Below are positions 1,296 through 53,100 of a DNA stretch of 64,000 nt, piece by piece. The notes under the pieces were generated by a model. That model ran no database searches and was not told the origin of the DNA. It saw nothing but the letters and a program-made list of their open reading frames with translations. The translations under genes and the position numbers were made by a program. The stretch spans positions 682,001-746,000 of the forward strand of contig OZ024762.1 of assembly GCA_964016885.1 (NCBI GenBank). Reading direction: 5' to 3'. The stretch comes from Eledone cirrhosa. Taxonomy: Eukaryota. How positions within the stretch are numbered: position 1 is the stretch's first letter; every line of letters begins with the position of its first letter.

Positions 1296-1675
1296 ATATA
1301 TATATATATACCCACAAACACACATATACATATACACATGTGCACATACACATACACACACACATATATATGCACCCACACACTGACACATACATATACA
1401 CATATACATACATACCCACATATACATATATATATATATATATATACACTCACACATTCATTCTATATTAAACACAAATATATATATAGATATGTATGTA
1501 TATATATATATATATATATATATATATATATATATATATATATATATATATGTTGGAGGTGAGTTTTATTGTAGTACAATAAAGCAATGCAAATATCGGA
1601 TAAGAAGCACTCTACAGTTTGTAGGACTGGAGTATAAATAATATAAGATCAAAAGATGGTTAAAAGAGTTCCAAG

Positions 1676-1746
1676 TATTTTATTATGCGCATTTCAAAAA
1701 CAAATATCATAATGTGATGACATTTGCGTTCTCATCAGATAAAATA
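1676..1746 (-). ncRNA. Type I hammerhead ribozyme fold (family A)
   Basis: TATTTTAT-CTGATGA-[GAACGCAAATGTCAT..ATGATATTTGTTTTT]-GAAA-TGCGCA-TA^ATAAAATA: 8-bp stem I, long stem II, palindromic stem III. Confidence 0.8.
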
Positions 1747-2065
1747 GGGATACATATTTGTTTTTGAAATGCACATAATAAAATACTTGGAACTCTTTTA
1801 ACCATCTTTTAGTCTTATATATATATATATATATATATATATATATATATATATATATATATATATATATATATATATATATATGACAATTAAAGTTTCT
1901 TTTTAAAAGATTATTTAAATATATTTAAATATATTAGAAGCAGTTTATCTAAATAAAGCATGGGAGGGGGGGAAGGAAGGAGGAGGTGGAGGAAGGAAAA
2001 GGATGAGGTGGAGGAAGGAAGAGGATGAGGTGGAGGAAGAGGAGGAGGTGGAGGAAGACGCTCAC

Positions 2066-2158
2066 TCGCTATCTGAGGTAAGGTGCCAGGAAGTTTCTCA
2101 TAAATATCCTCAGTACTGTTGACAGGTGAAGGGAAACTGCGCATTTTCTGGCATCTTT
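2066..2158 (-). CDS. SLC20A: SLC20/PiT exon 7, start of the large intracellular loop (KRCQKMRSFPSPVNSTEDIYEKLPGTLPQIA)
   Basis: tgtctcttttAG acceptor, GTGAGC donor, phase-compatible and open. The loop region is poorly conserved, so support is structural only. Confidence 0.7.
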
Positions 2159-2174
2159 CTAAAAGAGACAGAGA

Positions 2175-2760
2175 AGAACATGGAGGACAGAACAACAGCT
2201 GAACATGGAGCACTGGTGGACATGGAGGATTGGTGGACTGCTGGGTTGTAGAACATGGAGAACAGAACAACAGCTGAACATGGAGCACTGGTGGACATGG
2301 AGGATTGGTGGAATGCTGGGTTGTAGAACATGGAGGACAGAACAACAGCTGAACATGGAGGATTGGTGGACTGCTGGGTTGTAGAACATGGAGGACAGAA
2401 CAACAGCTGAACATGGAGCACTGGTGGACATGGAGGATTGGTGGAATGCTGGGTTGTAGAACATGGAGGACAGAACAACAGCTGAACATGGAGGATTGGT
2501 GGACTGCTGGGTTGTAGAACATGGAGGACAGAACAACAGCTGAACATGGAGGATTGGTGGACTGCTGGGTTGTAGAACATGGAGAACAGAACAACAGCTG
2601 AACATGGAGCACTGGTGGACATGGAGGATTGGTGGAATGCTGGGTTGTAGAACATGGAGGACAGAACAACAGCTGAACATGGAGCACTGGTGGACATGGA
2701 GGCCAGTTGGACATGGAGGACAGCTGGACATGGAGGACTGCAAGACATGGTGAATTGTCA
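2175..2760. repeat. Intronic minisatellite, 57/75-bp units built from ACATGGAGGA sub-repeats
   Basis: Direct inspection. Confidence 0.9.
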
Positions 2761-49374: not shown

Positions 49375-49445
49375 TATTTTATCTGATGAGAACGCAAATA
49401 TCATCCCATGATGATATTTGTTTTTGAAATGCGCATAATAAAATA
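49375..49445 (+). ncRNA. Family-A hammerhead fold
   Basis: TATTTTAT CTGATGA GAACGCAAATATCATC-CCAT-GATGATATTTGTTTTT GAAA TGCGCA TA ATAAAATA. Confidence 0.8.
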
Positions 49446-50711
49446 CTTGGAACTCTTTTAACCATCTTTTGATGTTATATTATATATATATATATATATA
49501 TATATATATATATATATATATATATATATAGTATATTTATATATACATTCATATATATATATATATCCAAAATTAAAATTAAGGGTTTTCATGTCTGAGA
49601 GACATGCGCGATATCCACCGTAGAATAAGCTCAAAAATTAGATCCGAGCATTACATATCAACTAGAAATAGATTGACATATATATATATATATATATAAA
49701 ATAAATACATGAAACAATGACAGGGAATAATTTGTAAAGAATGTAAGCACACATAGCTAGGTAGGTAACCAATTAAAGTTTGACTAGAACTTCAAATATA
49801 GATACCTTTTAAAATGATTAATATATATATATATATCGTTTCTGAATTTGTTTAGCAAGATTCTTTATCTGAAAACGTGTGTTGAAACCGATATTGTTAT
49901 AATTTGGGTCAGAACAAAGGTGAGGCACAAAACAAAGAAAAGAAACCCCGGTCACAGATGAGGTCACAGAATGTGTGACGAAAGAACTTTGACAATATAT
50001 GAACAACCGTCCGGTAGTGGAACCAACCAACCGGAAATTTATGAATTTTTTTTTTTTAATTGATAATAAATTGGAGTGAAAGCAACTGGTGCGTGTGTTT
50101 CTTAATGGCAACATGACCCTCCCAAAGTATAACAATATATATATATATATATATATATATATATATATATATATATATATATATATATATATATGTGTGT
50201 GTGTGTGTGTGTATGTGTTACGTAATTCCAAAGGGAAATAGAGTACTCTATGTATAGAACAGAGCTATTTAATTAGAAAGTGAACAACACAAAATATAAC
50301 TACTCCATTACCAAAGGTTTCTGGATCACAGACGAAAATAATATACGGCTGCATCGGTCGTCAGACAGAGACATTATAGATAAAAGATCTCTGTCTGACG
50401 AACTACCCAGATGTATATTAATATCGTCTGTGATCCAGAAACCTTTGGTAATGGAGTAGTTATATTTTGTGTTGTTCCCTTTCTAATTAGTCCAGAAATA
50501 GCCGTCGAAACGGCTTTGGCTCTGCCGTCGGGGTCATACTTTTTCCTATATATAGTATATATATTTATATATATGTGTGTGTGTGTGTGTGTGTGTGTGT
50601 GTGTGTGTGTGTGTGTGTGTGTGTGTGTGTCGGGTTTAATCGGGGGTAACCACAGTAAGTAAGGTACTCAATACATTAGTAGAGTGTCAACAATAAATTT
50701 AGTATATAAAT

Positions 50712-50762
50712 GGCTTCTACAGGACTAGAACTGTTTCATTCGTAGGAAATCATCAGGAAGCC
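50712..50762 (-). ncRNA. Type I hammerhead (family H) inside a near-perfect palindrome; partial copies at ~23745-23830, 44220-44260, 44425-44470
   Basis: GGCTTC CTGATGA TTTC-CTAC-GAAT GAAA CAG-TTCTAGTC-CTG TA^GAAGCC. Confidence 0.75.
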
Positions 50763-52909
50763 TGATGATTTCCTTCGAATGAAACAGTTCTAGTCCTGTA
50801 GAAGCCATTTCTACATTAAACATTATGTATGTGATCCTTCAAGATATAGTAATGCACCTTTCTGGGGTTCGAGCCCCTTAAAGTTTCACAGAGGACTCTT
50901 GGTGACTGACAGTTTGTCTTGGGAACGCCTACATTAATAATTGTTTCTACTTTTAGCACAAGGCCAGCAATTACCTCAGTGTATTACTGGTACTTTATTT
51001 TATCGGCCACGTAAGGGCGAAAGGCAAAGCTAACCTCGGCGGGATCTGAACTCAGATCATAAAGGGCCGTAACTCTATGCTGCAAAGCATGGCGTCCGAC
51101 CCTTTTTCGTTTAAATTTAAGCAATAGCAACGCCATGCCTACCTGAAGTGGGCGGGACTACATGACACGCATGTCTGAAGTGGGCGGGGCTACGTGACAC
51201 GCCTATCCGAAGTGGGCGATGTTACATGACACGCCCACTTTGGAAATGAATGGTTTTTGAAGGGTTTGTGTGTGACTTGACAATTGTTGGTCAGGCCAGT
51301 GTTAGGACCAGCGATACCATTGAAGCTAACTAGGCAACCATCTAGGGTGCACGCCTCAAGAGGTGTGTGTGGGGGGGGGGGGGGCATTACTGAAACTTGA
51401 AGGATCGTAGTTTTATACCAAATATGTATAATTAATTTAAATATTATAATTTCCTGTCAATCATCTTTAAATATGTCGCTAAAACATCTTGGCTGCAAAA
51501 GTAGTGTTGTGGAAATATTCCAAGTGGTGGAGAGGGTGGTATGGTACTATGGCCTGTCAGTTGAAGTAGCGTGGAGGATGTGGACTGTGCAGTAGAAAAT
51601 ACAGGCTTAGTAATTTGGATGTTCAGGTCACAGCAACAATTATGAAAAAAAACTAGGTTCGTCAGTATACCAGACTGTAAGTAGAAATTATTTTATTAGG
51701 TAGGATGGGGCGCATAATTAGGAGATGGGCTTATACTGCAGAGGTAACCTAGGGTGGTGAATACCCAGGTACACATTGTAGAGGTGACCTAGGGTAGTAA
51801 ATAGCCTGGCAGACATGGTGGTTATGGTGGTGGTGGGACCATACCATCCTACATCATACCATACCATGTTATACTACACCATACCATGTTACACCACACC
51901 ATACCATCCTACAACACACCACACCACACCACACCATCCTACAACACACCACACCACACCATCCTACAACACACCACACCATACCATCCTACAACACACC
52001 ACACCGCACCATACCATCCTACAACACACCACACCACACCACACCACACCACACCACACCATACCATCCTACAACACACCACACCACACCACACCATACC
52101 ATCCTACAACACACCACACCACACCACACCATACCATCCTACAACACACCACACCACACCACACCACACCATACCATCCTACAACACACCACACCACACC
52201 ACACCACACCATACCATCCTACAACACACCACACCACACCACACCATACCATCCTACAACACACCACACCACACCACACCATACCATCCTACAACACACC
52301 ACACCACACCACACCACACCATACCATCCTACAACACACCACACCACACCACACCACACCATACCATCCTACAACACACCACACCACACCATACCATCCT
52401 ACAACACACCACACCACACCATACCATCGTTCAATGGTAAACCTTGTCTTATAAATTATTCACAAGTCATTTCTAAGGTTTCACCAACCATTTCACATTA
52501 AGTTGTTCATATATTTTATCTCTCTCTCTCTCTCTCTCTCTCTCTCTCTCTCTCTCTCACACACACACACACTGTCTCTCTCTCTCTCTCTCACTCTCTC
52601 TATCTCACACTCTCTCTCTCACACAGACACACTCTATCTATATCTCCATTTCTCTCACTTTCTCTATCCCTCTCTCTCTCTCTCTCTCTCTCTCTCTCTC
52701 TCTCTCTATATATATATATATATATATATATATATATATATATATATATATATATATCACAGACATGCACAGAGAAACTCAAGCACACACATCTGCATTC
52801 TACATGATTTATATACATATATATATATATATATATATATATATATATATATATATATATATATGTGTGTTTGTGTATCTGTATATACATATATATATAT
52901 ATATATATC

Positions 52910-53100
52910 GAAGGAAATGTGGTAAGGAACCAGGTGGACCATAACGCACCAAAGTACTCAATACTTGAGGTAGTAGAGTGGGTAATAGGAACCAGTAAGA
53001 CCCCGACAGCTGAGCTCAAGCCGTTTCGACGGCTAATTCTGGTCCAGAATTAGCCGTCGAAACGGCTTGAGCTCAGCTGTCGGGGTCTTACTGGTTCCTA
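52910..53100 (-). mobile_element. Short TA-embedded element family carrying only the 3' half of a hammerhead; copies at ~7550-7680, 18310-18490, 23845-23900, 32975-33075, 35250-35450, 57878-58010
   Basis: Shared GGTAAGGAACCAGGTGGACCATAACGCACCAGAGTACTC...CCCCGACGGCTGAGCTCAAGCCGTTTCGAC. The minus strand reads GAAA-CGGCT..AGCYG-TC^GGGGTC. The 52986-53100 copy is a perfect ~56-bp-arm hairpin. Confidence 0.6.

Follow-up and report, generated by a model that had tools for sequence, protein, structure and literature searches.

A small hairpin of the form RCTC...GAGYRCY recurs in a 64,000-nucleotide stretch of the Eledone cirrhosa genome (GenBank assembly GCA_964016885.1, contig OZ024762.1, positions 682,001 to 746,000 of the forward strand; hereafter, the window, numbered from its first letter). 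The motif is real and is conserved across the leaders of Penelope-like elements (PLEs), which by their protein motifs belong to the Hydra clade. The original prediction from the window described the hairpin at seven sites and took it for a shared cis-signal of Penelope-like RNAs, a view that is now supported by its position in the leader, by covariation and by element ends that lie a fixed short distance 5' of it. It had not been noticed that full-length elements contain two such hairpins, or that some ends fall immediately 5' of the first hairpin and form a second class. The ends of the inserted copies fall into two classes, one per hairpin, and a head-to-head insertion nearly always has one of each class. 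To judge from the sequences, the likely role of the hairpin is to set the start sites of the reverse transcriptase (RT).

Occurrence and orientation of the hairpin

The pattern RCTC-N8-40-GAGYRCY had 22 distinct matches in the window, compared with means of 3.5-4.0 in dinucleotide shuffles (3 x 60; maximum 9-11), and a (TA)n or (CA)n run lay 23-74 nucleotides (nt) downstream of 20 of the 22. All seven sequences quoted in the original prediction were found at their places and on their strands, except that two minus-strand sites had been drawn one base too wide; the motif there occupies 1606-1633 and 52953-52979. The 3.0-Gb host genome is rich in (TA)n. The surroundings of the motif were compared with those of the bare GAGYRCY sequence in 39 arbitrary 10-kb stretches. 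A (TA)n run was present 20-79 nt downstream of 31 of 47 hairpin matches but of only 14 of 107 bare sequences, and on the upstream side for only 9 of the 47. A sense hammerhead core accompanied 9 of the 47 matches, always 50-89 nt upstream, versus 2 of the 107. The excess of (TA)n downstream and of hammerheads upstream indicates that the polarity of the motif holds genome-wide, as the predicted fixed orientation required.

The placement of the hairpin after a hammerhead held in part at the seven sites. A sense core in the same copy was present at three (1606, 26815 and 50663), its GAAA lying 48-70 nt upstream of the hairpin. For 7266 and 26446 the core was on the inverted arm only, while the copies at 19009 and 52953 were truncated, and the order there follows from family homology. 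The predicted distance of about 35-60 nt to the (TA)n junction agrees with a linker of 30-56 nt, and the junction proved to be the foot of a second hairpin. In an Rfam scan of the window, only three tRNAs among the matches listed (150 of 211) reached the gathering score and none corresponded to the hairpin. Viral contigs gave 14 pattern matches, with no relative among them.

The elements that carry the hairpin

The RT fragment at 15157-15972 led to a large host family with 41,935 first-look candidates, 142 of which were scored. Its copies had one open reading frame (ORF) with RWR, DKT, CxCX5C, CxxC and CxH motifs and a C-terminal endonuclease. The frames at three loci (L060, L159 and L181) were 714-722 residues long with a C-terminal YVG motif region, in elements that are short. 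The motifs read directly in the host frames were RWR/RWK, DKT, CSCRKPEAC or CSCRIKSEC, CxLC and CPH. According to the available parts of Craig et al. (2021, PMC8557442), the Hydra clade is recognized by RWK, DKT, a CxCX5C linker, CxxC and CxH within the endonuclease, and the C-terminal position of that domain; the host elements resemble the clade in these protein motifs, in the hammerhead, in an ORF length of <3 kb and in (TA)n targets. By their protein motifs, the carrier elements are thus Hydra-clade PLEs. An assignment to Naiad was dropped because the endonuclease is C-terminal. Pfam gave nothing informative for three element proteins. The predicted model of one Hydra-type protein had a mean pLDDT of 90.8, and its best match in the PDB was TERT (3du5, E 1e-8); this modelled resemblance would be expected of a PLE and says nothing on RNA binding.

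A canonical hammerhead core was predicted in the majority of host families and of metagenomic loci. At locus L200, the parent of the 52953 family, no CUGANGA core was found within 520 nt upstream; this leader may hold a variant core that has a long stem II. Tandem arrays of full-length copies were also seen in this family, the period being about 3,540 bp. At L060 the leader, with hammerhead and hairpin, precedes the ORF, and the repeat that follows the ORF extends as far as a TAT 37 nt beyond the hairpin, where it is joined to (TA)n. The leader at L060:3318-3534 contains a single strict hairpin, after which several degenerate repeats of 30-38 nt take the place of a clear second one, and it is in frame with the ORF throughout. 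Two additional families, with open frames of 714-719 residues and two boxes of the GAGYRCY kind in the leader, came from a distant-homologue search. In the L160 and L181 leaders, hairpin 2 encloses an insert of about 70-75 nt, and its closing stem and box are retained.

The seven sites had been attributed to unrelated families. Parents or close relatives bearing an ORF were found for six of the seven. Tail patterns of the 52953 and 19009 families had 382 and 49 matches in the genome, with 0 for reversed controls. Among 30 loci of each, the second box was present in 26 and 30, and the ORF start in 19 and 29, respectively. The 1606 family had 267 genome matches, with a Hydra-type ORF at 10 of 10 loci and a strict second box at 8 of 10; the 26815 family had 88, with a Hydra-type ORF at 9 of 10 loci; and one decayed ORF-bearing parent was found among four loci of the 26446 family. 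The parents found for the tail families indicate that the window elements are mostly truncated ends of old, related Hydra-clade families, so that they are diverged homologues and not unrelated. Independent non-autonomous families were rejected because ORF-bearing parents exist. Five host parent proteins were mutually 35-70% identical, and a recent single ancestor was therefore also rejected; in this respect the original prediction stands, since the shared ancestry is old.

Two hairpins in the leader

There were 1,080 homologous proteins at E <= 1e-20, and 60 aligned proteins led to 79 metagenomic loci, from which 66 ATG-anchored leaders were counted. A strict box lay 10-60 nt before the ATG in 50 of 64 leaders of at least 60 nt, and two strict boxes were present between the hammerhead and the start codon in 35 of 55 leaders of at least 140 nt. 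Some leaders that lack a box hold variants such as TCTC/GAGA. The order was hammerhead, hairpin 1, a 30-56 nt linker, hairpin 2 and start codon, with a hairpin-to-hairpin spacing of 55-83 nt in the metagenomic leaders. Over whole metagenomic loci, the pattern was in the sense orientation 137 times and antisense 15 times, overlapping matches being counted.

Autonomous elements carry the motif in their leaders in the host, in the metagenomic relatives and in published coral and sea cucumber consensus sequences. In the accessible part of the PMC8557442 supplement, the motif was recognized by eye in Hydra-2_Amil (coral), Hydra-1_Ajap (sea cucumber, two copies) and Hydra-2_Ajap (sea cucumber), and a GCCC/GGGC variant in Hydra-1_Crog (sea louse). 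In the same material, Hydra-1_Obim and Hydra-1_Amil had no clear copy by eye. A GAGCACY box was also visible past the stop codon of Hydra-1_Amil and Hydra-1_Ajap, with no obvious 5' partner (File S7, as far as available). Six 9-mer forms of the box had eight matches in the whole supplement, four in Hydra leaders and four scattered inside Naiad or Chlamys, and these 9-mers were not enriched in the Naiad or Chlamys consensus sequences of the supplement. From these counts, the sequence form of the box looks clade-specific.

A bulged, covarying stem

The motif has the shape of a bulged hairpin of about 25 nt, RCTC-stem-UN-GAGY-RCY. A 2-nt 3' bulge beginning with U was present in all 21 window rows that have an RCTC partner. 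In 75 non-redundant metagenomic hairpins, the first four upper pairs in the 2-nt-bulge register were Watson-Crick in 65 of 75, 43 of 68, 34 of 49 and 22 of 39, whereas in other registers the first upper pair was Watson-Crick in 3 of 75, 3 of 75, 10 of 72 and 9 of 68. Only 0-1 of 20,000 permutations equalled the pair counts of the 2-nt-bulge register, and a simple unbulged hairpin was ruled out by this comparison. These hairpins were picked by the nearest CTC, by which the 5' strand was mis-picked in several rows, and none was dropped. The bulge began with U in 75 of 75, the selection filter having demanded U at one of the two bulge positions, and the 3' flank was ACT in 62. The pair counts were made with anchored scripts; a MAFFT alignment of 68 hairpins left the 5' strand unaligned because loop lengths differ. 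Loops are otherwise highly variable, and the stem-loop interior of 1606-1633 matched hairpin 2 of one metagenomic element (L123:432-470) at 14 of 15 positions.

Covariation was followed on an RT tree of 29 metagenomic relatives alone, with no published reference PLEs, that were 39-78% identical. The first upper pair of hairpin 1 was Watson-Crick in 28 of 29. It swapped between U-A and C-G with 6 and 7 parsimony steps on its two sides, 7 jointly and at least 6 joint changes, while slid partners on the same tree gave 0-3 pairs of 29. The upper stem of hairpin 2 was weaker, with 14 of 28 at pair 2. In a held-out host sample (a fresh 600 kb), the 2-nt-bulge register was Watson-Crick in 51 of 58, 47 of 57 and 42 of 54. 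The outer pair of the lower stem was A-T 78 times, G-C 12, G-T 4 and mismatched 3 times in 97 hairpins, and in the held-out sample A-T 43, G-C 9, G-T 3 and mismatched 3 times in 58; the tree analysis had imposed complementarity at this pair and is not used as evidence for it. The predicted probability of the lower stem exceeded 0.5 in 60 of 84 leader hairpins. The covariation that had been proposed is therefore real, in held-out sequences too, but in the lower stem it is restricted to the outer pair, and the hairpin is bulged.

These changes bear on whether the motif could be a relic without function, kept through common descent, or else a promoter element recognized by its primary sequence. 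The families are indeed homologous, and PLE leaders overlap internal promoters according to the available parts of PMC8557442. Such an explanation is nevertheless extremely improbable. The motif persists amid leader flanks that cannot be aligned at 39-78% protein identity, and repeated compensatory changes on the tree, with slid controls near zero, contradict it.

Two classes of ends

Ends were first scored in 574 kb, consisting of the window, 39 arbitrary and 12 neighbouring stretches, with five parent families. There, 63 of 80 copies ended in (TA)4+, and 61 of the 63 stopped no more than 15 nt 5' of hairpin 1 (28 copies) or hairpin 2 (33 copies), 53 of them at -10 to -5. In the held-out 600 kb, for which the reference of the 27577 family was left out because it contained a microsatellite, 76 of 87 arms of families with known parents ended in (TA)4+. 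Of those ends, 72 were in the hairpin zones (within 15 nt 5'), 60 of them at -10 to -5. In the metagenomic contigs, 11 of 15 internal divergence points lay 0-5 nt before a hairpin, eleven contig-end rows having been set aside beforehand. TAT/ATA trimers were concentrated at the same place, with 103 of 173 upstream of 84 hairpins starting at -8 to -6.

It was also considered whether the hairpins serve mainly in translational control or packaging, as a signal to which the element protein binds, with ends nearby only because the linkers are AT-rich. In the majority of metagenomic leaders hairpin 2 does sit 12-32 nt ahead of the ATG, and such a role could coexist with docking of the RT. As a substitute for it, this account is very unlikely: only 20 of 127 TAT/ATA sites in the references fell inside the two zones versus 61 of 63 ends, and the distance to the ATG varied from 20 to >60 nt among host families while the offset of the ends remained at 5-10 nt.

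The two classes were not combined at random. Both samples together had 85 head-to-head pairs, with both ends in a zone for 54. Of these, 51 joined a long and a short arm, two were short-short and one was long-long, where 27 asymmetric pairs would be expected if the arms were independent (binomial P about 1e-12); the held-out sample alone had 27 of 28. Loss of palindromes would not explain the rarity of short-short pairs, since short-short units share the inverted repeat of long-short units. The one-sided tail, tandem and inverted copies and (TA)n insertion were all seen in the host elements.

The pairing also bears on a processing model, in which a nuclease or termination event generates RNA 3' ends 5' of each hairpin and ordinary target-primed reverse transcription follows. 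The same two classes of ends are predicted by this model, and genomic data cannot separate an RNA end from an internal start. Separate pools of RNA would, in contrast, give symmetric pairs about half the time, as against 3 of 54 observed, and the Poseidon protein, which is related, initiates at internal sites of RNA that has not been processed (PMC11167929, available portions). RNA processing is consequently considered quite unlikely.

A proposed mechanism

We infer that the RT probably docks on each hairpin, which thereby fixes a priming site within the RNA, the gap between the two hairpins being the PLE tail. The ORF protein would bind each hairpin through the invariant lower stem, the bulged U and the 3' flank, and would cut the (TA)n target. 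Each cut strand could then pair with UAU/AUA 6-8 nt 5' of a hairpin and be extended. Copying from the hairpin-2 site would give the long arm, in which the linker and hairpin 1 constitute the tail, and copying from the hairpin-1 site would give the short arm, which lacks a tail. Both target strands would be primed on one RNA, possibly by an RT dimer, by analogy with a published model of another clade, and early termination would leave the small fold-back stubs seen in the window.

Several observations weigh against this proposal, 1) CTC/GAG is invariant, so that one pair of the lower stem alone is able to covary, 2) the predicted lower-stem probability was about 0.4 for one host hairpin 1, 3) the sense-strand wobble bias was weak, G-T 16 versus A-C 9, 4) 20 of the 55 long leaders had fewer than two strict boxes and 9 had none, 5) the abundant L060 family lacks a strict hairpin 2, yet its tail stops at a constant position, 8 nt ahead of a degenerate stem that was taken as hairpin 2 by eye, 6) 31 of the 85 head-to-head pairs had one end or more outside both zones, 7) a parent of the 50663 family was sought and found at 0 of 5 loci, and 8) the parent search for four families required RCTC 6-9 nt from the tail end, so that their hairpin-2 offsets are partly built in. 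The last search left box, stem and ORF free, and the two distant-homologue families and the metagenomic ends were unaffected by this bias.

The signal might instead act on the DNA or antisense side, the GIY-YIG endonuclease seeing the hairpin in cDNA or extruded DNA and cutting beside it to resolve a longer intermediate. In the portions of the literature available, the tail was ascribed to 'EN-mediated resolution', EN being the endonuclease (PMC8557442), the D. virilis tail was cited as needed for endonuclease recognition (PMC11167929) and an antisense template was argued (PMC3846280); the weak wobble bias points the same way. The distance between the half-sites, however, lies anywhere between about 8 and about 75 nt, and the upper stem stays paired although its sequence varies; a double-stranded DNA site would need neither. 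Moreover, the first pair was G-T 7 times and A-C once, and the UA microhomology at the junction lies at a fixed distance, as priming would give. Recognition on the DNA side is thus unlikely, and docking of the RT on the RNA hairpins is preferred.

A wider form of the docking proposal is put forward tentatively, as a possibility somewhat short of probable. The two hairpins may constitute a clade-wide twin RNA ruler that loads two RT units and primes both (TA)n strands, making the arms and the one-sided tail in a concerted manner. A hairpin of the same geometry at the Poseidon start, described below, would suggest a general start rule of endonuclease-bearing PLEs, the closest mobile relatives of telomerase.

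Comparison with known systems

The only in vitro study of a PLE, on Poseidon_Ac (PAc; Frangieh et al. 2024, PMC11167929, cited for the portions available), showed internal initiation but not what selects the site. The PAc RT starts at two internal sites that flank the tail, downstream of the hammerhead. It needs the first 172 nt of the ORF, extends both target strands and uses AT-rich targets, and a dimer was modelled. The two internal starts, the tail between them and the extension of both strands resemble the mechanism proposed for Hydra elements. PAc differs in clade and sequence, and in that its starts are inside the ORF and are described as lacking homology with the target, while UA microhomology is present at Hydra ends. 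The available portions of the study define no conserved binding structure. Inspection of its template by eye suggested a possible 3'-bulged hairpin at +121 to +147, which lies 3-10 nt downstream of the start reported at +111-118. By analogy, this candidate, which lies within the required first 172 nt and has the same geometry, is a lead and not a test.

The stringent LINEs ZfL2-1 and ZfL2-2 are similar in that a small stem-loop marks the RNA for reverse transcription and is bound by the element's own protein (PMC4176376, available parts). ZfL2 RNA has only one stem-loop, at its 3' end and ahead of the priming repeat; this stem-loop is itself copied, and its specificity resides in the identity of the loop (PMC4176376). 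The Hydra hairpin, unlike it, occurs twice, at internal positions on the 3' side of the priming site; its lower stem, bulge and 3' flank are invariant, and its loop is free. Like the stringent-LINE signals, it is a conserved stem-loop with compensatory changes, but its position differs, with two copies in the leader and ends 5' of each.

Bulged or flanking RNA structures also fix the start of the RT in hepadnavirus epsilon and in the template-positioning elements of telomerase. Epsilon supports protein priming from its bulge, while telomerase copies one short template repeatedly, and the likeness to the Hydra hairpin is conceptual.

Animal non-LTR retrozymes are likewise short non-coding hammerhead repeats related to the pLTRs of PLEs (bioRxiv 10.64898/2026.07.22.740005, in part). 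They are defined as tandem units, whereas the window copies are head-to-head stubs of ORF-bearing families. The hairpins and their relation to the ends were not mentioned in the portions of the Hydra-clade text and supplement examined (PMC8557442). More widely, the hairpin was undescribed in the available parts of the literature searched, including PMC11167929, PMC8557442, PMC4209133, PMC3846280 and PMC4176376; older PLE or Repbase reports could mention it. It is apparently an undescribed cis-element of a known clade.

Hairpins and other features of the window

The hairpin 1 at 1606-1633 (-), with ACTC/GAGT, a 4-bp upper stem, a UA bulge and GCT, has a 54-nt tail to (TA)n at 1552. It belongs to a head-to-head insertion at 1552-1831, whose long arm (-) contains a hammerhead core (1691-1738), the hairpin and the tail, and whose short arm (+) ends at (TA)n 5' of the hairpin position. 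A second insertion of this family occupies 33664-34086, with a hairpin at 33718-33745 (-) in the long arm and none in the short arm. In the insertion at 52902-53101, the long arm carries the hairpin 52953-52979 (-) and a 44-nt tail, while the short arm ends 8 nt 5' of the hairpin position; the parent family has hairpin 2 and an ORF. Further copies of hairpin 1 of this family lie at 7584-7610 (-) with a 44-nt tail and at 57922-57948 (-) with a 45-nt tail.

The family B hairpin 1 at 7266-7289 (+), GCTC/GAGC, which had been cited as compensatory, is related to the leaders of two autonomous families, and its hammerhead is found only on the inverted arm, 7124-7171 (-). Hairpins of this type recur at 13413-13436 (+), with a 34-nt tail, at 41741-41764 (-) and at 50242-50265 (-), where the first pair is G-U. 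The copy at 19009-19031 (+), with a UU bulge and a 61-nt tail, is 5'-truncated and has no hammerhead in cis. A variant at 18810-18833 (+), followed by a 74-nt tail, has no clear upper stem. The 26446 family is represented by 26446-26474 (+), with a 6-bp upper stem, a 59-nt tail and a hammerhead on the inverted arm at 26294-26325 (-), and by 31343-31370 (+), with a sense hammerhead core at 31261-31304. The long-loop hairpin at 26815-26855 (+) lies 70 nt after the hammerhead core 26708-26745 and has a 54-nt tail; parents of its family carry a second hairpin and an ORF, and another member is at 32542-32584 (+). A further family is present at 27577-27613 (+) with a 56-nt tail. Hairpin 1 also occurs at 30153-30175 (-), with a 45-nt tail, and at 50663-50685 (-), within a head-to-head unit (50631-50820) that has hammerhead cores on both arms; another member of the latter family is at 44383-44404 (-). 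A decayed piece of an autonomous Hydra-clade PLE at 14943-16300 (-) contains RT fragments (15157-16300) and a hammerhead core (14986-15009), and its 3' end meets a TA run 6 nt before the hairpin-1 position, which is a tail-less end.

Among the neighbouring features, an apparently intact open frame of 1045 residues at 35651-38788 (-) has the endonuclease and RT motifs of a LINE ORF2, which we take to be CR1/L2-like, and is preceded by a 399-residue frame at 38659-39858 (-). A coding exon at 9929-10125 (-) starts with MDIPENW and has a GANDVAN motif, presumably that of SLC20/PiT phosphate transporters, and the window may lie in or beside this gene. Three tRNA genes of identical score were found at 55496-55568 (-), 59018-59090 (+) and 59567-59639 (-). 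Three arrays, one of them inverted, share a 72-bp unit (3235-3438, 5892-6682 and 22328-23026). Outside the window, a 362-residue frame at L060:930-2015 (-) resembles what we assume to be a mariner transposase.

Implications

For years PLE insertions have been described as having a 30-40 nt tail and inverted arms, but with no mechanism for either. If it has been read correctly, the hairpin pair would explain the long-puzzling one-sided tail. A hairpin of about 25 nt kept in coral, sea cucumber, crustacean and Eledone, together with the 5-10 nt and one-site-per-arm rules, opens the question to simple mutagenesis. In addition, the hairpin can serve as a marker when the true ends and leaders in a very abundant class of repeats are annotated, and it is likely to be a natural signal by which reverse transcription starts within an RNA.

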